Shown: positions 26,387-60,609 of the stretch, piece after piece
Layout of the letters: each line of letters opens with the position of its first letter
Position numbering within the stretch: the first letter of the stretch is position 1
Virus record (IMG/VR): IMGVR_UViG_2772190736_000001
Location: 26,634-90,633 of that record
Length of the DNA stretch: 64,000 nucleotides
Direction: 5' to 3' (one strand)
From: a virus
Lineage: Duplodnaviria; Caudoviricetes
Notes under the pieces: model-generated
The model's input: only the letters and a program-made list of their open reading frames with translations
What the model was told of the DNA's origin: nothing
Databases searched by the model: none
Program-made: the position numbers and the translations under genes

Positions 26387-27460
26387 TCAGGTGGTGTGCC
26401 AGGTGCCGCGGAGGGCGGCGGTGGTGAATCCGGGGCCGTAGGCGACGACCACGCCGGCGGCGCCATCCTCGGGCGGGTCGGCGTAGGTGCGCTCGAGGAC
26501 GCGGAGGATCGATACGCCGCCGAGGTTGCCTTCTTCGGTGAGGGTGGCGGTGGAGTGGCGGGTGTCGACGTCGTCGAGGCCGAGGGCGCGTGCGGTGTCG
26601 GTGATGATGCGGGGGCTGCCGGGATGGATCGCGGCCCAGTCGACGCTCTGGTCGGGGCCGATCCAGTCGAGGACGGTGGGCAGGACGTCGTCGGCGGCGG
26701 TGAGGGCTTCCTTCGTGGAGTCGAAGTGGAAGCCGTCGGTTCCGATGCGGCCGCTGTAGCGGTCGACGCTGCCGGGCAGGACGTATTCGAGGGTGTCGTC
26801 GGGGCCGGCGATGTGGAGGCCGGGGCCGAGGGGCTGGTCGGAGACGATGCAGGCGGCGGCGGAGTCGCCGAACAGAGCCTTGTAGATCATCGCCTCGATC
26901 GAGGTGTCGTTGTGGTTGTAGACGCTCGAGATGATCTCGGCGGCGATGACGAGGACCTTGGAGCCGGGTCGGGCGGCGATGAGGTCGACGGCGCGGGTGA
27001 GGGCCTGGGTGCCGCCGGCGCAGGCCATGGTGGTCAGGGCGATCCGGCGGACGGTCGGTCTGAGGCCGAGGGCGGCTATGAGGTGGATGTCGAGGTTGGG
27101 GACGGACCAGCCGGTGGAGTGGGTGGTGATGATCGCGTCGATGTCCGGATAGCTGCCGGGGTCGGGTCCGGGCGTGAGGCCGGCGGCGGCAAGGGCCTGC
27201 TGGGCGGCGTTGGTGGCCAGGGCCAGGGCGTCGGTGAAGGCGGCGGTGGAGCGTTCCTCGATGGTGGCGTCGCCGGACACGGTGGCGGCGGTGAGCGGCC
27301 GGCTGAAGTAGCGGGTCTGCACGCCGAGGTTCCCGATGACGCGGGGTATGACGCGCAGCTGCGGGTGGTCGGGGTGGCGGCCGGCGATGTCGTCGATGAT
27401 TTCGCTGGTCGTCACCTTGTGGGTGGGCAGGGTTGTGATGGGGCGGGAGATGTAGGGCAC
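26387..27460 (-). CDS. Type III polyketide synthase (RppA/PhlD-like)
   Basis: Intact triad: MACAGG (Cys), AIHPGS (His), EGNLGG (Asn); ALFGDS, YGPGF; GGAGG RBS before GTG 27460. Confidence 0.93.
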   Translation of the reverse strand: MPYISRPITTLPTHKVTTSEIIDDIAGRHPDHPQLRVIPRVIGNLGVQTRYFSRPLTAATVSGDATIEERSTAAFTDALALATNAAQQALAAAGLTPGPDPGSYPDIDAIITTHSTGWSVPNLDIHLIAALGLRPTVRRIALTTMACAGGTQALTRAVDLIAARPGSKVLVIAAEIISSVYNHNDTSIEAMIYKALFGDSAAACIVSDQPLGPGLHIAGPDDTLEYVLPGSVDRYSGRIGTDGFHFDSTKEALTAADDVLPTVLDWIGPDQSVDWAAIHPGSPRIITDTARALGLDDVDTRHSTATLTEEGNLGGVSILRVLERTYADPPEDGAAGVVVAYGPGFTTAALRGTWHTT

Positions 27461-39723: not shown

Positions 39724-40929
39724 TCACGCGGCCAGCGCGTTGATCGCAGCCACGGTCTCGGCGGCAGTCCGATTTCCGGCATACCGGGGCGCACTGAGCA
39801 TTCCCGCCAGCCGGTCAGCTCGCTTCACAATCCACGAGATCTGCTCCTCCTCGGGCAACGAGAGGATCGGCCGGATGGCATCGGCTGCGCCCTCTACGTC
39901 GTCGAGCTGAACGCGCGCCGTCGCCAGGTAGATGTGCGCCAGGCGCTCGTCGTCGAGCGACCGCTCGGCCTCGGGTCCGGTGCGCCACAGCTCGATCGCT
40001 GTGATCGCCTCCCTCTCCGCACGCTCGGCGTCGTGTCCGCCCTGGAGCCAGATCAGTGACGAGCCGGCGTAGTAGGACTGCTTCGCCCTTGAGAACCCGA
40101 AGAGTCCGTGGAGGGAGTCCGGGCGCCGGATCCGCTCGCGCGCGGCCTCCGCCTCGTCGAGCGCGCTGTTCGCCGCCCGGGAGTTGCCGAGGTTCGCCAG
40201 GCACTGGGCCTCGCCGCACCTCAGTCGGGCCTCACCCGTGCCGTGGCCGGAGCCGACCCACTGGTATCCGTCCTGGATGTGTTCCAGGGCCCGCCCGTAG
40301 TCCCCCTGGAACCGGGAGATGAGTGACCTGGTCCCGGCCACCCACGCGGCGAGCTCGGAGTCACCGGCGAACTCGGCGCAGCGGCCTGCGGCAGTCGCGT
40401 GCTCGTGCGCCTCCTCCGCGTCCCCGAGGTCGAGCAGCGCGTACGCGAGGACGCCGGACAGTCTGCCCGCGGCAACGTACAGGTCAGCACGGTCACCGGG
40501 CCTGAAGTGTCCGGAACGCAGCCGTTCGAACGCTTCGCCCCGCAACGCGTGTGCCCGGTTCATCATCGGAGCCGGCGGGTTGCCGAGGTAGTCGAACGCC
40601 GTCGCCTCGACACCTTCCTGGAGCTCCGAGATGTCCAGGTCGGCCAGTGCTGTCAGATCCCTGGACATCGCGAGCGCTGCCGCCCGGGTGCGATGCGCGG
40701 CCGCAGCCGCGCGCCGTTCGGCATCTTCGCGTTGCCACAGGGCGACCAGCTTGCCGTTCGCGCCGAGCACGTCGTCGGCACGGACGGCCACTTCCAGCGG
40801 GGCCAGCCTGCGGCCGGTCTCGAAGGAGTGCAGAGAGGTGCGGTCGTAGTGGATGTGCTGGGCAAGGCCGGCGAGCGACCATCCTGCCTCCATGCGTAGC
40901 TGCCGGAGGCGTTCCGAGAACGTGGTCAT
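39724..40929 (-). CDS. XRE-family HTH regulator with TPR-like C-terminal domain
   Basis: LRQLR...GWSL..LA..IHYD...L..FETGRR HTH plus Ala-rich helical repeats; GGAGG RBS. Confidence 0.85.
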   Translation of the reverse strand: MTTFSERLRQLRMEAGWSLAGLAQHIHYDRTSLHSFETGRRLAPLEVAVRADDVLGANGKLVALWQREDAERRAAAAAHRTRAAALAMSRDLTALADLDISELQEGVEATAFDYLGNPPAPMMNRAHALRGEAFERLRSGHFRPGDRADLYVAAGRLSGVLAYALLDLGDAEEAHEHATAAGRCAEFAGDSELAAWVAGTRSLISRFQGDYGRALEHIQDGYQWVGSGHGTGEARLRCGEAQCLANLGNSRAANSALDEAEAARERIRRPDSLHGLFGFSRAKQSYYAGSSLIWLQGGHDAERAEREAITAIELWRTGPEAERSLDDERLAHIYLATARVQLDDVEGAADAIRPILSLPEEEQISWIVKRADRLAGMLSAPRYAGNRTAAETVAAINALAA

Positions 40930-54131: not shown

Positions 54132-54695
54132 GTGCCAGTCTCGAAAGCCCGGCAAGCAGAGATCGCACAGCGGCGCAGCCAGATGCTCATCATGAAGATC
54201 CAGGGCCGCACCGCAGCCCAGATCGCAGAGCACTTCGACATCTCACCCGCCACCGCGCGCTCCGACCTCTCCCGCGCTATCAAGAAGGCCCGCCGCCTCG
54301 AGGTCCAAGACGCCGAGCTCTACCGCTTCGTCCAGGGCTCCCGCCTCGAACACCTCCTGCGCGCGGTCTGGCCCGCCGCAACAGGTGCTCCCGGACCCGA
54401 CGGAGAACTTGTAGTCGACCTCAAGGCGAGCGAGCAGGCCCGCAAGCTAATCGTCGACATCAGCGACCTGTTCGGGCTCAAGGTCCCCGTGCGTACCGAG
54501 ATCAGCGGCCCTGACGGCGGAGACATCCCCTTCTCCAGCGGCGAGACCGCCGAAGTCATGGCCCTCATCGCCATCTCCGACCGGGACAACGCGGAGATCC
54601 CCGCCATCGACCCCGAAGCCGACTTCGACGACGAAGAAGACGAGGACGACGCCCCCGACGACGAGGACGAGGACGACGATGACGACGGCGCCTGA
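54132..54695 (+). CDS. terS: Terminase small subunit
   Basis: N-terminal HTH, EISGPDGG motif, acidic tail, overlaps terL. Confidence 0.82.
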   Translation: MPVSKARQAEIAQRRSQMLIMKIQGRTAAQIAEHFDISPATARSDLSRAIKKARRLEVQDAELYRFVQGSRLEHLLRAVWPAATGAPGPDGELVVDLKASEQARKLIVDISDLFGLKVPVRTEISGPDGGDIPFSSGETAEVMALIAISDRDNAEIPAIDPEADFDDEEDEDDAPDDEDEDDDDDGA

Positions 54696-56238
54696 CCTCC
54701 AGCCTGGCATCGAAGCGCACTACCGGTCCCTGCCTGCTGCCCAGCGCCGCAGGGTCATCGCCCGCGCCCGGCCCGAGACCCGGATCAAGCTGGCGCGGAT
54801 CGAGCGGCAGATGGCCATGGACCGCTCCCCGGGCGCACTCGCCGCAGTCCTCACAGGAGGCCGGGAGAAGCAGGCCCCCCACCTGGACATGATTGACAGT
54901 GCGTTCCGGCGGATCGCAGCCGGCGAACGCCTCCAGGTGATGCTGACGTGTCCCCCCCGACACGGGAAGTCGCAGCGCGCCTCCCGCTGGGGTCCCCTCT
55001 GGTACCTCCGCCGCCACCCTGAGCACCGTGTCATGATCGCTTGCTACGGCGCCGACCTCGCCGACGACCACGGCCGATGGGTCCGTGACCAGCTCAAGGA
55101 GTACTCACCCGCCCTCGGCATCAAGCTGCACCCCGCCTCCCACGCCGCTAACCGTTTCGACCTCGAACAGCGGCGCGGCTCCAGCGTCCGCGGCGGCATG
55201 GTCACCGCCGGCGTCGGCGGCGGCCTCACCGGCAAGGGCTTCAACCTCGGCATCATCGACGACCCGTTCAAGGGCCACGACGACGCCTCCAGCCCGGCCC
55301 AGCGTGAGCGCGTCTGGGAGTGGTACCGGTCGGTGTTCTTCACCCGCCGCGCGCCCGCCGCCTCCCTCATTTTGATCAACACGCGCTGGCACGAGGACGA
55401 CCTGTCCGGTCGGCTCCTCAAGCACGAACCCCACCGATGGCTGCAGATCGACCTACCCGCCCTCGCCGACAACCCCAGCGACCCCCTCCACCGCCCCATC
55501 GGCGCCCCCCTGTGGCCAGAGCAGTACGACGCGGCCGAGCTCGCCGACATCCGCGAGTCCGTCGGTGAACGCGTTTGGTACGCCTTGTACCAGCAGAAGC
55601 CCCGACCGCTCGAAGGCGGCGTGTGGAAGTGGGCATGGATCACCAACCACCGCCTCGACCTCGAAGCCTGGCCCGGCATTAGCCCGACCCGGATCGTCGT
55701 CGCTGTCGACCACGCCGGCGGCGACGCCATGCGCAACGACGAAGTCGGCCTCGTCTGCGCCGCCAAGGATGCCGAAGGCCACATGTACGTCCTGGACGAC
55801 CGGTCCCGCACCATGGGCGCCGACACCTGGGGCACCGAGGTCTGCCGCCTCGCGATCGAACGCCAAGCCGACGCGATCATCGTGGAGAACAACTTCGGCG
55901 GCGACATGGCCAAGCAGGTCGTCTCCCAAGCGTGGCGGGAGCTCGAGCGCGAAGGCGGTACCCAGCGCATGCTGATGCCTTCGGTCATCGAGGTGAACGC
56001 CAAGCAGGGCAAACGCTTGAGGGCCGAGCCGATTGCCCAGCTGTACCGCCAGGGCCGCATCCACCACGTCGGCGAGTTCACCGAGCTCGAAGGCCAGATG
56101 GTCACCTGGCTGCCTGGCATGGACTCTCCCGACCGTATGGATGCCGCAGTGCACGCCTTGACCGAACTCGCCGATCCGGCGGCCGTCGCCACGGGCAGCG
56201 GTTCGTACAACGACCAGCGGCTCGCGGGACGCCGCTGA
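54679..56238 (+). CDS. terL: Terminase large subunit
   Basis: PPRHGKS, IIDDP, TRWHEDD, LYQQ.P, VEN, SPDRMDA. Confidence 0.95.
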   Translation: MTTAPDLQPGIEAHYRSLPAAQRRRVIARARPETRIKLARIERQMAMDRSPGALAAVLTGGREKQAPHLDMIDSAFRRIAAGERLQVMLTCPPRHGKSQRASRWGPLWYLRRHPEHRVMIACYGADLADDHGRWVRDQLKEYSPALGIKLHPASHAANRFDLEQRRGSSVRGGMVTAGVGGGLTGKGFNLGIIDDPFKGHDDASSPAQRERVWEWYRSVFFTRRAPAASLILINTRWHEDDLSGRLLKHEPHRWLQIDLPALADNPSDPLHRPIGAPLWPEQYDAAELADIRESVGERVWYALYQQKPRPLEGGVWKWAWITNHRLDLEAWPGISPTRIVVAVDHAGGDAMRNDEVGLVCAAKDAEGHMYVLDDRSRTMGADTWGTEVCRLAIERQADAIIVENNFGGDMAKQVVSQAWRELEREGGTQRMLMPSVIEVNAKQGKRLRAEPIAQLYRQGRIHHVGEFTELEGQMVTWLPGMDSPDRMDAAVHALTELADPAAVATGSGSYNDQRLAGRR

Positions 56239-57479: not shown

Positions 57480-58391
57480 ATGCCCCGACCCCTATGGTCC
57501 GGAGCGGTGTCGTTTGGCCTGGTCACGGTGCCTATCAAGCTGGAGGCCGCGACCGAGAAGCACGACGTCTCACTGCGGCAGGTGCACCTGGAGGACGACG
57601 GTCGCGTCCGGTACCGCAAGACCTGCGAGATCGACGGCCAGGTCCTGGCCGAGGACGAGATCGGCAAGGGCTACGAGGTCCACAAGGACGCGGTCATCCC
57701 GATCACCGACGCGGACCTCGCGAACATGCCGCTGCCGACGGCGAAAGCCATCGAGATCGTGGCGTTCATCGACCGGGCCGCCGTCGACCCCGTCCAGTAC
57801 GGCGCCGGCTCGTACTACCTCACCGCTGACGGCCCGGTGGCCGCGAAGCCGTACGTCCTGCTCAGGCAGGCACTGGAGCGCAACGAGAAGGTCGCCGTCG
57901 CCAAGTTCGCCCTGCGCGGGCGCGAGCGCCTGGGCCTGCTCCGCCCCCTGGGTGACGCCCTGCTGCTGTCCGGGCTGCACTGGGCCGATGAGATCCGCTC
58001 CCCCGCCGAGCTCGCCCCACCGGACACCGAGCTGACCGACGAGGAGATCGAGGGTGCCCTCACCCTGATGAACACCATGGCCACCGGCCGCCTGGACGAC
58101 CTCGGTGACGAGCTCACCGACCACTACACCGAGGCACTCCATGAGGTGATCGCGGCGAAGGCTGAGCACCGGGCCCCGCAGCCGGTCGCGGAGAGCCATG
58201 AGCCGGTCGGAAAGGTCGTCGACCTGATGGCGGCGCTGGAGAAGTCGGTCGCCGAGGCCCGCGAGCGCCGCGGCGAGACCGATTCCGGGGGCGAGGCGAC
58301 GGTGCACGAGATGCCGAAGCCAAAGAAGGCAGCAGCGAAGAAGACCGCACCGAAGAAGACGTCAACGCCGCGGCGCCGGAAGACGGCCTGA
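57480..58391 (+). CDS. ku: NHEJ DNA end-binding protein Ku
   Basis: W.G..SFGLV.VP.KL, RVRY, KGYE, YYL, VVDLMAALE.S, basic tail. Confidence 0.96.
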   Translation: MPRPLWSGAVSFGLVTVPIKLEAATEKHDVSLRQVHLEDDGRVRYRKTCEIDGQVLAEDEIGKGYEVHKDAVIPITDADLANMPLPTAKAIEIVAFIDRAAVDPVQYGAGSYYLTADGPVAAKPYVLLRQALERNEKVAVAKFALRGRERLGLLRPLGDALLLSGLHWADEIRSPAELAPPDTELTDEEIEGALTLMNTMATGRLDDLGDELTDHYTEALHEVIAAKAEHRAPQPVAESHEPVGKVVDLMAALEKSVAEARERRGETDSGGEATVHEMPKPKKAAAKKTAPKKTSTPRRRKTA

Positions 58392-58393
58392 GG

Positions 58394-58783
58394 TCAGGGG
58401 AACTCGACCTCTGGAGCCGGCGCACGCCCTCCGTCGGGCCGCGTGACGCCAAGGCTTCCCCACGGGGAGCAGATGTCGCACATCTGCAGGTCCGGGTACT
58501 CCTCGGCCGCAGCCAGGACCCCGTCGCGGTCCAGGAGCTCCCCAGCCCCGTACTTGGCCCTGAGGCCGCAGTTGCCCCGGTGGAGGACCGGATGGCCCTC
58601 GGCGGCCCGCGGCGCCGAGATCACCCACGCCTGCTCGCGGCGCGCGACCTCCCTGCGCCGCTTCTCCTCCGCGACCTCGCGCTCCAGGTCCCGGATCTCC
58701 CGCTCCGTGGTCACGGCCTGGTACCGCAGCCACTCCAGCAGCGTCCGCTTCTTCTCCAGCCGGGCGGCTATCGGCAGGCCCAT
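58394..58783 (-). CDS. DUF6233-like Zn-binding protein
   Basis: Coiled coil, LH.G.C...C.IC.P. Confidence 0.7.
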   Translation of the reverse strand: MGLPIAARLEKKRTLLEWLRYQAVTTEREIRDLEREVAEEKRRREVARREQAWVISAPRAAEGHPVLHRGNCGLRAKYGAGELLDRDGVLAAAEEYPDLQMCDICSPWGSLGVTRPDGGRAPAPEVEFP

Positions 58784-58797
58784 GACGGCACCCCTGC

Positions 58798-59196
58798 TCA
58801 CGCCGCCTCGGCGGCCGCGGGCTGGCCGTCAGCCACGGCCAGGACATCGGGGTGGGACTGTAGGGCGGTGCGGGCCTCGATGACCATCGGCCCGCGCTCC
58901 AGGGTGCTCCAGAAGACGTGGGTGACGACAGCGGTCGACAGGTCCCGAATGAGGGCGCGCAGCCGCTCATCTTCAGCGCGCTGCTCCGGGGTGTAGCCCG
59001 GGGACGGAGCTCGCCCATCGGAGATGACGGCATTGGTGGTGCTGTTCACAACGGGCTCCCATCCGGGCATCGGCTCGACGGACCACGGAAGGGTCCGGCA
59101 CAGCGCCTCATGCTCGGCTCGGGCACGGTACAGCCGGGCCTGGAGCTCGGTGAGGTCCGCCGGGAAAGGGAAGGGGGTGGTGTCGTTCGCGCTCAC
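58798..59196 (-). CDS. Hypothetical protein
   Basis: FP.DL...Q...LPWS.EP..GW...H.FW motif. Confidence 0.75.
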   Translation of the reverse strand: MSANDTTPFPFPADLTELQARLYRARAEHEALCRTLPWSVEPMPGWEPVVNSTTNAVISDGRAPSPGYTPEQRAEDERLRALIRDLSTAVVTHVFWSTLERGPMVIEARTALQSHPDVLAVADGQPAAAEAA

Positions 59197-59204
59197 ACCA
59201 GGAA

Positions 59205-59220
59205 ACGTACCTCTGTTCGA
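59205..59220 (-). promoter_or_regulatory. LexA (SOS) box-like site
   Basis: TCGAAC-AGAG-GTACGT just upstream of the 59196 start. Confidence 0.5.
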
Positions 59221-59309
59221 TTTCCGGAGGCTAGTCGTACACACCACCTGCGACTACGGTCACCCAGACGGGCCAGCACCCGCAGCCCGCAACACGGGAG
59301 GGGACCCTC

Positions 59310-59426
59310 ATGAGCGACATCGGATGGGGCATCGTGGCCGACCCGGGCTGGGGCCTGGCCGACCCGGAGTGGGGCGTAGCGCGAGAACCCGAGTGGGGCG
59401 CGGCCGGCGACCCGAACTGGGGCTGA
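59310..59426 (+). CDS. 38-aa peptide with five D/E-x-x-W-G repeats
   Basis: MSDIGWGIVADPGWGLADPEWGVAREPEWGAAGDPNWG*; GGGAGGGG RBS; below ORF-track cutoff. Confidence 0.7.
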   Translation: MSDIGWGIVADPGWGLADPEWGVAREPEWGAAGDPNWG

Positions 59427-59483
59427 AACGCGAACGGCCCGCGCCCAAGACTTCTTGGACGCGGGCCGATCAACACGGCTTCC

Positions 59484-60338
59484 TTACACGGACGCCAGAC
59501 GCTCGCCCCGAGCCGTCAGATCCACGTCAATGACTTCCTCGACCTCATCCGACACATCCTGCTCAGCCGGGCTGATCGTAAGCAGCCGCTTCGCGGCCAG
59601 CTGGTGCATCAGGCCCACGATCGCCATGCTCTTCCCGGCTCCCGCCATGAGATGGAGGCGCATCCCCGTCTCCTCGGCAGCGAGCGTTTCTACGCGCATG
59701 ACGTCCTCAATCGGGCCGCTCAGGGCGCGAGCGTGTGCGTGCAGCAGATCGAGCAAGCAGCCCGCGTCACGTTCGCCGTGAACGATCGCGTTGCGTGCGA
59801 TACTCAGCGCGGCCAGGAGGTCACGCTCGGCGCTCGACAGGTCGACGGGCTTCGGCGGCCGACCGCCCCGCCGCTCCCAGCGCCGCTCGAACGCCTCGAC
59901 CTGCTCCTTCACGTAGACCGGGCCGGCCTTCAGGCGCGCCACGGCGGGCGGAAAGTCTTCGCGGTCCGTGAGCTGCTTGGCACGGGGGCGGCTGACGCCG
60001 AGCATCTCGGCGATCTCGGCGACGCCAACCAGGGCGGGAATGGCGGGCTCGGCGTTGCGCCGGTCCAGTTCCTGCTCGGTCATGGCCTCGATGCCGACAA
60101 CCGGGGCCTTCAGGCCGAGGTCGCGGGCGGCGGCCGTGACGTCCTTGAGGCCGGCGTCGGTGGCGTGCCTGACGGTGGACGCTTCGATGAAGAGCTGAAC
60201 GGTCAGGTTGCCATTGGGGGCGGTGCCGATGGCGGGCGCGGTTCCTGCGAGGCGATCGTGGTCGAGAAGCGCGTCGTAGAGGTCGTCCGGAGCATCGCGG
60301 TGGCCGAGCTCGACGTAGATGCTCCAGGCCTGGGTCAT
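59484..60338 (-). CDS. HicB-like antitoxin/HTH protein with C-terminal extension
   Basis: LVGVAEIAEMLGVSR.R...DFP HTH; follows HicA-like gene. Confidence 0.7.
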   Translation of the reverse strand: MTQAWSIYVELGHRDAPDDLYDALLDHDRLAGTAPAIGTAPNGNLTVQLFIEASTVRHATDAGLKDVTAAARDLGLKAPVVGIEAMTEQELDRRNAEPAIPALVGVAEIAEMLGVSRPRAKQLTDREDFPPAVARLKAGPVYVKEQVEAFERRWERRGGRPPKPVDLSSAERDLLAALSIARNAIVHGERDAGCLLDLLHAHARALSGPIEDVMRVETLAAEETGMRLHLMAGAGKSMAIVGLMHQLAAKRLLTISPAEQDVSDEVEEVIDVDLTARGERLASV

Positions 60339-60411
60339 GGTCGTCTCCGTTCGTGTCGTGATTCAAGGGCGGTGGTGTGGCCCGCCCGAATATCCGGGCG
60401 GGCCGCATGGT

Positions 60412-60609
60412 CTACGGGATGAATCCGTGTCGCTTCATGTGCGCGATGCAGTTGAGGAGGCTTCGCCTGTCCGAAGGAGTGCCCGGGAGGGTGGTGACCC
60501 GCACTCCGCCCTTTTTCACCAGCCAGTGACCGTTCTTGGTCGGAGTGACCTCGAAGCCCTGACTCTCCGCCTTCCTGATCAGCTGCTGGACGTCCCGCTT
60601 GCTGCTCAC
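60412..60609 (-). CDS. hicA: HicA-like mRNA interferase
   Basis: 65 aa; GF......GHW...TPSD. Confidence 0.75.
   Translation of the reverse strand: MSSKRDVQQLIRKAESQGFEVTPTKNGHWLVKKGGVRVTTLPGTPSDRRSLLNCIAHMKRHGFIP

Follow-up and report, generated by a model that had tools for sequence, protein, structure and literature searches.

In a 64,000-nt stretch of viral DNA (IMG/VR record IMGVR_UViG_2772190736_000001, positions 26,634 to 90,633; hereafter the window, whose first letter is position 1), we identified a gene of 38 codons, here termed the WG micro-gene, that encodes five [DE]xxWG units in a row. The sequence evidence makes it very probable that this is a real, protein-coding gene, the translation of which we presume, and places its product in an undescribed family of small proteins of about 30-47 amino acids (aa) with 4-6 repeats. 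As to its function, we tentatively read the product as a cytoplasmic, multivalent tryptophan-motif binder that would act on a DNA-damage or replication protein, a reading in which translation, location, binding mode and partner are all presumed.

The WG micro-gene and its family

The open reading frame (ORF) runs on the plus strand from an ATG at 59310 to a TGA at 59424-59426 and specifies a 38-aa product, MSDIGWGIVADPGWGLADPEWGVAREPEWGAAGDPNWG, whose tryptophans fall at residues 6, 14, 21, 29 and 37. They stand in a G-W-G context at residues 5-7 and 13-15, in E-W-G twice and in N-W-G once; the five TGG codons make up 13% of the 38, and with seven acidic residues and a single basic one the net charge is about -6. 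A Shine-Dalgarno (SD) sequence, GGGAGGGG, lies at 59296-59303 (plus strand), 6 nt 5' of the ATG, and a -10-like hexamer, TACGGT, lies within a conserved block at 59255-59260 (plus strand), 49 nt 5' of the ATG, where it marks a putative promoter. Eight nt past the stop, between convergent genes, a G+C-rich hairpin at 59432-59471 (-30.4 kcal/mol, z = -5.7, with none of 200 shuffles folding equally well) would serve as a bidirectional terminator. Scanning with simple consensus sequences flagged no sigma-70 promoter and no T-tailed terminator at the WG micro-gene; the promoter and terminator calls are therefore drawn solely from conservation and folding. On re-reading of the sequence, the ORF, the five D/E-x-x-W-G units and the strong ribosome-binding site proved to be exactly as given in the initial annotation, which had been made from the letters alone; the TACGGT about 50 nt upstream and the divergent LexA-box-like site that it had pointed out were likewise confirmed, and both are conserved in the loci of relatives.

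The array is not a product of chance. In a six-frame scan of the 8.1-Mb genome, the [DE]xxWG motif occurred 653 times in 16.2 million residues. Nowhere outside the WG micro-gene did three or more fall within 40 residues, and a cluster of at least five has a Poisson expectation of ~6.5e-10 per genome. Two of the units stem from a recent, in-frame tandem duplication of 21 nt (7 codons) on the plus strand at 59335-59375 (Tandem Repeats Finder: period 21, 2.0 copies, 90% matches), from which we conclude that the array grew by duplicating 7-codon units.

The product matched nothing in Pfam, NCBIfam, PHROG or PADLOC, and Rfam returned no element within 58700-59900. The ESM Atlas contains the protein as a letter-for-letter match, which gave no usable neighbour. 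AlphaFold2, run on a 14-member alignment, returned a pLDDT of 55.3, a pTM of 0.11 and no secondary structure at all. The window copy has no hydrophobic N-terminus, signal peptide or leader, its first repeat beginning at residue 3, nor does it have a dibasic site. These predictions are consistent with a product that is disordered and cytoplasmic, a string of short linear motifs that would act by avidity rather than by a fold. A full-text literature search, to which the supplementary tables of the LexA paper PMC9380542 did not belong, found no description of the family. No described protein or RNA family, and no described system, accommodates the WG micro-protein; no new mechanism is shown here.

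Relatives were collected with several searches. A first search with the DNA found two related small ORFs, both in one genome (G014). A pattern scan over one genome per species returned 32 stretches, comprising 14 intact family ORFs, 7 truncated or decayed copies and 11 unrelated sequences; all 14 intact ORFs lie in records titled Streptomyces. Together with the window and one further genome (G192), these make up the 16 intact loci on which the counts below are based. Their ORFs are homologous, measure 31-46 aa, and all begin with M-x-(x)-D-[IT]-G-W-G; the family alignment is headed by a natural 46-aa relative. Searched with the family profile, a collection of 5.8 billion proteins yielded six small proteins, two of them Streptomyces entries named "hypothetical protein", and a set of 1.84 billion representatives yielded 36 matches at E <=1e-3, about 20 of which are members of 30-62 aa. 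A six-frame search of the genus matched 17 of 401 genomes, a number that includes a different, secreted class and weak matches, and in a class-wide sample of 401 genomes convincing matches were confined to G000 and G014. Weak class-level matches outside the genus, in G767 and G466, fell inside long open frames of 482 aa and 315 aa, respectively; a DNA match in G021 (L017) lay inside an acyl-CoA-synthetase-like ORF and was set aside together with matches in G034 and G005.

Several features of these loci argue for a translated gene. An SD sequence precedes the ATG by 5-9 nt in all ten loci inspected (GGGAGGGG-like in nine, GGATGGGG in L047). Alignment of ten upstream regions revealed a -10 block, G-N-TA-[CG][CG]-GTC-[AG]-CC, 45-55 nt upstream, with TACGGT or TAGCGT in eight loci, TACCGC in L043 and GATGGT in L047; inspection of the same alignment by eye found neither a conserved -35 element nor a conserved RecA-independent (PafBC-type) motif. 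The G+C content at third codon positions (GC3) is 0.80-0.97 and exceeds that at second positions (GC2) in every copy, the window copy having 0.89 and 0.63, respectively. Tryptophan is encoded by TGG in 42 of 42 motifs, around which the codons for glycine after Trp (GGC 27, GGA 5, GGG 2, GGT 1), proline (CCG 8, CCC 7, CCT 1) and aspartate (GAC 37, GAT 4) vary. In the six closest nucleotide pairs, all ten gap runs are multiples of three, and codon differences are synonymous in 36 cases and non-synonymous in 30. Relatives vary in the number of units (4-6), in their spacers and in an optional basic patch, NRRR; they keep the N-terminal M-x-(x)-D-[IT]-G-W-G, the D-x-x-W-G units, a C-terminal G-D-[PT]-x-W-x and, in the 16 loci, a stop directly after the last unit. 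As expected at such G+C content, the alternative frames across the ORF are largely open as well; openness alone is therefore no proof, and it is the SD, start, stop, GC3 and synonymous pattern that carry the argument. Selection on the peptide, which the initial annotation had suggested from the window alone, is thus supported by a frame, start codon, SD and W-G that are kept across 16 loci with synonymous variation; the possibility that the repeats of relatives do not preserve the frame, which would have spoken against it, was examined, and the frame is kept in the 16 intact loci.

LexA-box neighbours and the host element

Neighbourhood analysis of the 16 intact loci, following a motif search of the kind that the initial annotation had proposed, revealed one recurrent link, to genes preceded by a LexA box, a site that had served there merely as a landmark. 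In five of the 16 loci (the window, L068, L080, L086 and L088) the WG micro-gene is divergent from a gene of the type of its neighbour in the window, here called div149, and in another five (L060, L061, L062, L073 and L078, with the truncated L081 in addition) it lies downstream of an operon of a second gene, up83, and a gene for a Y-family-polymerase-like protein. The remainder are divergent from a 446-aa protein of unknown family (L063 and L087) or have other settings (L047, L066, L067 and L077). The products of div149 and up83 are homologous (hhalign probability 95.4%, E 1.7e-8) and have the motifs F-P-x-D-L and H-P-[YF]-W in common; accordingly, 10 of the 16 intact loci adjoin a gene of one family. 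The div149 product has no Pfam or NCBIfam match, all names among 120 listed of its 753 relatives are "hypothetical protein", and its AlphaFold2 model (pLDDT 88.5) resembled only generic helical hairpins (Foldseek E >=1, VIA Z up to 7.8), which is uninformative.

In the window, the LexA-type (SOS) box TCGAAC-AGAG-GTACGT occupies 59205-59220 on the minus strand and overlaps the -10 element (TACGTT) of the putatively leaderless div149. It fits all strongly conserved positions of the S. venezuelae consensus tCGAAC-N4-GNNCGa, as given in PMC9380542. A corresponding element, [AT][AT]TCGAACA, lies 17-24 nt before the start codon in all ten div149/up83 genes that adjoin WG micro-genes, where it overlaps a TAnnnT hexamer; the position of this hexamer, 6-8 nt before the start, suggests leaderless transcripts. 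The TCGAAC element also precedes 14 of 16 further family members from other genomes (L093-L108). Within the div149 family, an invariant TCGAACAGGCGTAnCAT element nearly always abuts the GTG start. On this sequence pattern, the div149 family probably consists of leaderless, LexA-controlled genes of unknown function.

Experimental data exist for a related operon. In PMC9380542, the S. venezuelae plasmid operon pvnz_37140-37135 ("hypothetical protein + DNA polymerase IV") is reported with LexA ChIP enrichment, with 15-fold and 7.5-fold induction by mitomycin C and with the box TCGAACACGTGCTC. We located the same operon in NZ_CP018075.1 (L091, 69903-76883), with the box TCGAACACGTGCTC and with Ku and DUF6233 genes upstream; its polymerase-like gene is 80% identical to that of L042, and the arrangement Ku-DUF6233-up83-polymerase is that of several WG loci. 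Because this plasmid operon is reported as bound by LexA and induced by mitomycin C, the neighbours of the WG micro-gene belong to a damage-induced family.

The Y-family-polymerase-like proteins (~331 aa; L042:7232-8227, L043:5925-6917 and L046:7204-8196) have IMS_C and IMS_HHH domains and no match to a palm domain. DNA polymerase IV models align to them only from about model position 83, and far below cut-offs, which suggests that a working palm domain may be lacking; going by sequence, they may be inactive, ImuB-like scaffolds. A related gene occurs on 78 Streptomyces-type plasmids. The gap between the polymerase-like gene and the WG micro-gene is ~90-100 nt in four loci and 1 kb in L073. 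DUF6233 genes recur in L042, L043, L044 and L061, and Ku lies near the WG micro-gene in L042 and L044, with a fragment in L043. In L066 (3627-4880, minus strand), a DnaN-like clamp paralogue (DNA_pol3_beta_2) stands divergent from the WG micro-gene at a distance of ~680 nt, beside a helicase with HA domains.

The window itself is a prophage, as PHROG matches surround the WG micro-gene. Genes for tail fibre, holin, endolysin, tape measure, major tail, major head, scaffold and portal proteins occupy 227-25144 on the minus strand, with that for the large terminase on the plus strand at 54679-56235. The layout is odd in that the terminase and a phrog_645 protein (54132-56235, plus strand) stand ~30 kb away from the minus-strand structural and lysis genes; the window end coincides with the end of contig C27, and the element may be circularly permuted, split, or in fact two elements. 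Closer to the WG micro-gene, a phage-type gene for Ku, which binds ends in non-homologous end joining, is found at 57480-58391 (plus strand; phrog_4873; TIGR02772, 257 bits), followed on the minus strand by a DUF6233 gene at 58394-58801 (PF19746, E 1.9e-8), which is downstream of div149, and by div149 itself at 58798-59196 (132 aa from the GTG at 59196; a helical-hairpin protein). On the other side, the convergent neighbour (59484-60338, minus strand) encodes a 284-aa protein with an HTH_17 match at E 1.4e-4, below the curated cut-off, and a weak PDC-M06B match. Next come a gene for a HicA-like small toxin of 65 aa (60412-60609, minus strand; PADLOC HicA-like, E 5e-9; phrog_2089) and a sigma/LuxR-like gene, also on the minus strand. 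Since the 284-aa gene adjoins the HicA-like gene, our guess is that its product is a HicB-like antitoxin partner, and the two genes (59484-60609) are probably a toxin-antitoxin pair, convergent with the WG micro-gene and conserved in G385, which has the same neighbour block at 45-70% protein identity.

Deposited phages gave no tblastn match to the WG micro-gene, and their DNA was similar over only 53 nt, within the Ku gene; of six matches returned when IMG/VR was scanned with a DNA pattern, none was a family member. Most of the relatives are situated in DNA that is plasmid-like or otherwise accessory, and transposases, an integrase fragment, an AAA_10 protein and a terminase are found in their flanks. 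The initial attribution to Streptomyces phages is therefore right for the window, which is a prophage, and does not extend to the family, which no deposited phage or IMG/VR contig carries and whose members are mostly plasmid-like or accessory. Hairpins with z <=-2, not homologous to one another, follow the ORF in 8 of the 16 loci. Between loci, the flanks change around a conserved unit that extends from promoter to stop, so that the gene behaves like a small, self-contained cassette, one that, to judge from its predicted promoter and terminator, would be accessory prophage cargo of the "moron" kind.

A possible tryptophan-motif binder and the alternatives

In the reading that we tentatively favour, the WG micro-protein would be made from its own cassette and stay in the cytoplasm, where its Trp side chains, in motifs 7-8 residues apart, would dock stoichiometrically and multivalently into pockets of a partner. 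It would thus be a decoy, a competitor or an adaptor rather than an enzyme, a secreted signal or a ribosomally synthesized and post-translationally modified peptide. Because the cassette stands repeatedly beside LexA-box genes, the partner would most likely belong to the machinery of replication or of the DNA-damage response, with the div149/up83 protein, the Y-family-polymerase-like protein and the beta sliding clamp as candidates. The initial annotation had itself put forward a multivalent ligand or decoy, an idea that would suit a peptide with predicted disorder and a variable number of repeats, and had looked elsewhere for the partner, to a TPR- or LuxR-type regulator. The 31 loci of relatives contain no homologue of its suggested target, the XRE-TPR protein at 39724-40929, and a LuxR-type neighbour recurs in two loci only, so neither target found support.

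Our boldest guess, which we regard as a long shot, is that the WG micro-protein is a phage- or plasmid-encoded "Trp-hook" that titrates a replication or damage-tolerance hub, specifically the beta sliding clamp, through an ImuB-like P-x-W-G, and so sets the access of polymerases and repair factors during residence or induction of the element; were this true, it would be the first free-standing multivalent hook of this kind in bacteria. Beta-clamp-binding peptides generally have a QL[SD]LF-type motif, in which Gln comes first and the second and fourth positions are hydrophobic anchors. In the mycobacterial ImuB, an inactive Y-family polymerase, the clamp-binding motif is QLPLWG according to PMC10421592, and P-x-W-G is thus common to ImuB and the WG repeat, both of which stand in an actinobacterial DNA-damage context. 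Moreover, the WG micro-gene lies directly 3' of a polymerase-like gene in five intact loci and one truncated locus, and a DnaN paralogue is near it in one. The ImuB motif is, however, single, whereas the WG micro-protein has five units.

A number of observations weigh against the proposed binder or against parts of it. The WG units have the form x-D-P-[GEN]-W-G, without the Gln-Leu of the ImuB motif and without Leu at position 4. The association with LexA-box genes is partial, as 6 of the 16 intact loci have no div149/up83 gene in the flanking DNA examined, and loci with common neighbours may share them by descent, so that the counts are not independent. The WG profile matched 17 of 401 genomes, even with non-family matches included, as against 64 of 101 genomes of the genus with div149-type genes; with these genes so widespread, the WG micro-gene is a rare add-on to them, and the plasmid operon in L091 has no WG micro-gene downstream. 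A TCGAAC box is absent from the gene's own promoter, both in the window, where 12 nt separate the end of the box from the expected -35 position downstream of it, and in the aligned promoters of the polymerase-type loci; the WG micro-gene may therefore be LexA-independent and need not be damage-regulated. As for the gene itself, when all pairs of at least 70% identity are taken, 258 of 564 gaps are multiples of three, a low share that we attribute to unreliable nucleotide alignment of the repeats and count neither way. There are also seven decayed or truncated copies (L071, L074, L090, L082, L089, L081 and L075), which retain the SD, the ATG and the first D-x-G-W-G before an early stop or loss of frame, and which indicate, by their sequence, that the gene is often lost. 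Three of these remnants (L071, L074 and L090) are in one genome, in a record titled Microtetraspora glauca NRRL B-3735. A search of plasmids found a single, degenerate copy without a start codon (L092), and a search of sequencing runs for the locus returned no RNA run and one DNA run at a word share of 0.06.

Like the GW/WG proteins with which viruses mimic the Argonaute hook, the WG micro-protein might instead be a counter-defence or host-takeover decoy that blocks a host protein unconnected with repair. Its presence on a prophage and in accessory regions would fit, as would a tiny, acidic and disordered product, which resembles many phage inhibitors, and the family profile also matches eukaryotic GW/WG-repeat proteins (P0019 and P0022). 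We nevertheless consider this unlikely: a PIWI domain (PF02171) was found in none of five carrier genomes, with control genomes positive; the peptide has no PADLOC match and no defence system is conserved alongside; and neither deposited phage genomes nor the IMG/VR pattern scan yielded the gene.

We see only a small probability that the product is a multi-core precursor or signalling peptide, whose D-P-x-W-G units would be cut or modified (for example, at Trp) by host enzymes encoded elsewhere and then exported. The initial annotation had raised this option, and the short, near-identical units with their invariant W-G are in keeping with it, as are the RR or RRR between units in many relatives; matches of the profile to animal APGWamide-type precursors (KR-APGWG-KR) indicate that a precursor with several peptide copies can be built from an xPGWG array. 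The neighbourhoods argue otherwise. Genes for radical-SAM enzymes, P450s, YcaO, lanthipeptide enzymes, prenyltransferases, peptidases or ABC exporters are not conserved alongside in the 16 loci, and a scan of the window and 18 relatives' loci met an S8 peptidase once (L043) and methyltransferases in the related L067 and L073; the neighbours are instead genes of DNA metabolism. Repeat number and spacers also drift freely, the window copy has no dibasic site, and there is neither a signal peptide nor a leader. The initial annotation had itself noted the absence of a signal peptide and of an adjacent modifying enzyme, and both points were upheld, the second by Pfam searches around the WG micro-gene in the window and in its relatives, leaving the precursor proposal without a conserved enzyme, protease or exporter.

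Nor do we give much credence to a non-functional origin, as a decaying or spurious ORF or as a selfish repeat DNA or RNA element that stays open in G+C-rich DNA. The seven truncated copies that retain the SD and first repeat would be expected of such an element, and the mostly stop-free other frames, the rare and patchy occurrence and the lack of an RNA run with the locus in the sequencing-run search also point in this direction. Against it stand an ATG, an SD spacing and a stop right past the last unit that are kept in 16 loci, a GC3 that is highest in the coding frame, synonymous variation of Gly, Pro and Asp codons around an invariant W and, in the closest pairs, in-frame indels and an excess of synonymous over non-synonymous changes.

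A cis-acting, translation-dependent sensor, in which a Trp-codon leader or upstream ORF would report the supply of Trp-tRNA or stall the ribosome, would explain the 13% of Trp codons and the downstream ORF that overlaps the 3' end in two loci (L041/L063 and L087), but is highly improbable, as the window has a -30 kcal/mol hairpin 8 nt past the stop and a convergent next gene, the downstream genes differ among loci, the D, P and G residues of the motif are kept with synonymous variation rather than TGG alone, and no Rfam element was found.

Returning to the tryptophan-motif binder, what makes it of interest is the combination of a clear design, a Trp-Gly array on a disordered, acidic chain, with a clear address, in Streptomyces phages, plasmids and accessory DNA, usually beside LexA-box genes. 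Annotation routinely overlooks proteins of fewer than 50 residues, and in few of them can a logic be recognised. Mimicry of short linear motifs is well known from eukaryotic viruses; if binding to a hub were true, bacterial mobile elements would use it as well, to steer the DNA-damage response of their hosts, and the micro-protein would offer a way into the uncharacterised div149/up83 SOS genes and the plasmid polymerase-like operon. If there is no partner, the family is still a clean test case for repeat micro-genes that arise by in-frame duplication and then decay.

Comparison with known systems

Arrays of similar motifs occur in other proteins. A second DPGWG class, encoded in G240, G066, G004 and G192 (L025, L026, L029 and L038/L040; P0020), comprises proteins of 70-110 aa with an N-terminal signal or transmembrane segment (MAKKLIRTVVG...) and 4-6 DPGWG units joined by Ala/Pro-rich linkers, at a conserved chromosomal locus beside a gene that by eye resembles the ClpB N-terminus and a conserved gene of 134-164 aa; this class is likely secreted, sharing the motif alone with the WG micro-protein. 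A bacterial protein of 507 aa (P0026) carries a GWG array in another architecture, with an XRE-type HTH at its N-terminus, a long, disordered linker of ERGWGAPAEPGW repeats, a membrane segment and a C-terminal domain, and on an IMG/VR contig (L055, 842-912) the C-terminus of a larger ORF has QDP[DN]WG-type repeats (6 WG) in a layout unrelated to the family. The animal APGWamide precursors (P0008, P0009, P0023-25, P0032 and P0033) also have tandem x-P-G-W-G units; they are, however, long and secreted, with a signal peptide and KR sites around each unit, none of which the WG micro-protein has, and the resemblance is a coincidence of motif rather than homology.

The S. venezuelae operon of PMC9380542 resembles the WG loci in its pair of up83 and polymerase-like genes, its Ku-DUF6233 neighbours and its type of SOS box; it differs in having no WG micro-gene. 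In the window, in turn, the WG micro-gene stands next to the div149 paralogue and has no polymerase-like neighbour.

Proteins of the GW182/TNRC6 type and their viral mimics carry "Ago-hook" GW/WG repeats, which are disordered, acidic or polar, variable in copy number and have Trp near Gly or other small residues. The WG micro-protein is similar in its multiple Trp flanked by small residues, its acidic character, its predicted disorder (pLDDT 55) and its variable copy number. Unlike these proteins, it consists of the repeat array only, is bacterial and resides on mobile elements, and a PIWI or Argonaute protein is absent from five of five carrier genomes.

Finally, DinI and PsiB are small, acidic, folded regulators of the SOS machinery, and prophage morons are self-contained units of promoter, gene and terminator. 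Although the WG micro-protein has no similarity to DinI or PsiB in sequence or fold and is predicted to be disordered, it is likewise small and acidic, and its cassette is likewise carried on a mobile element, beside SOS genes.

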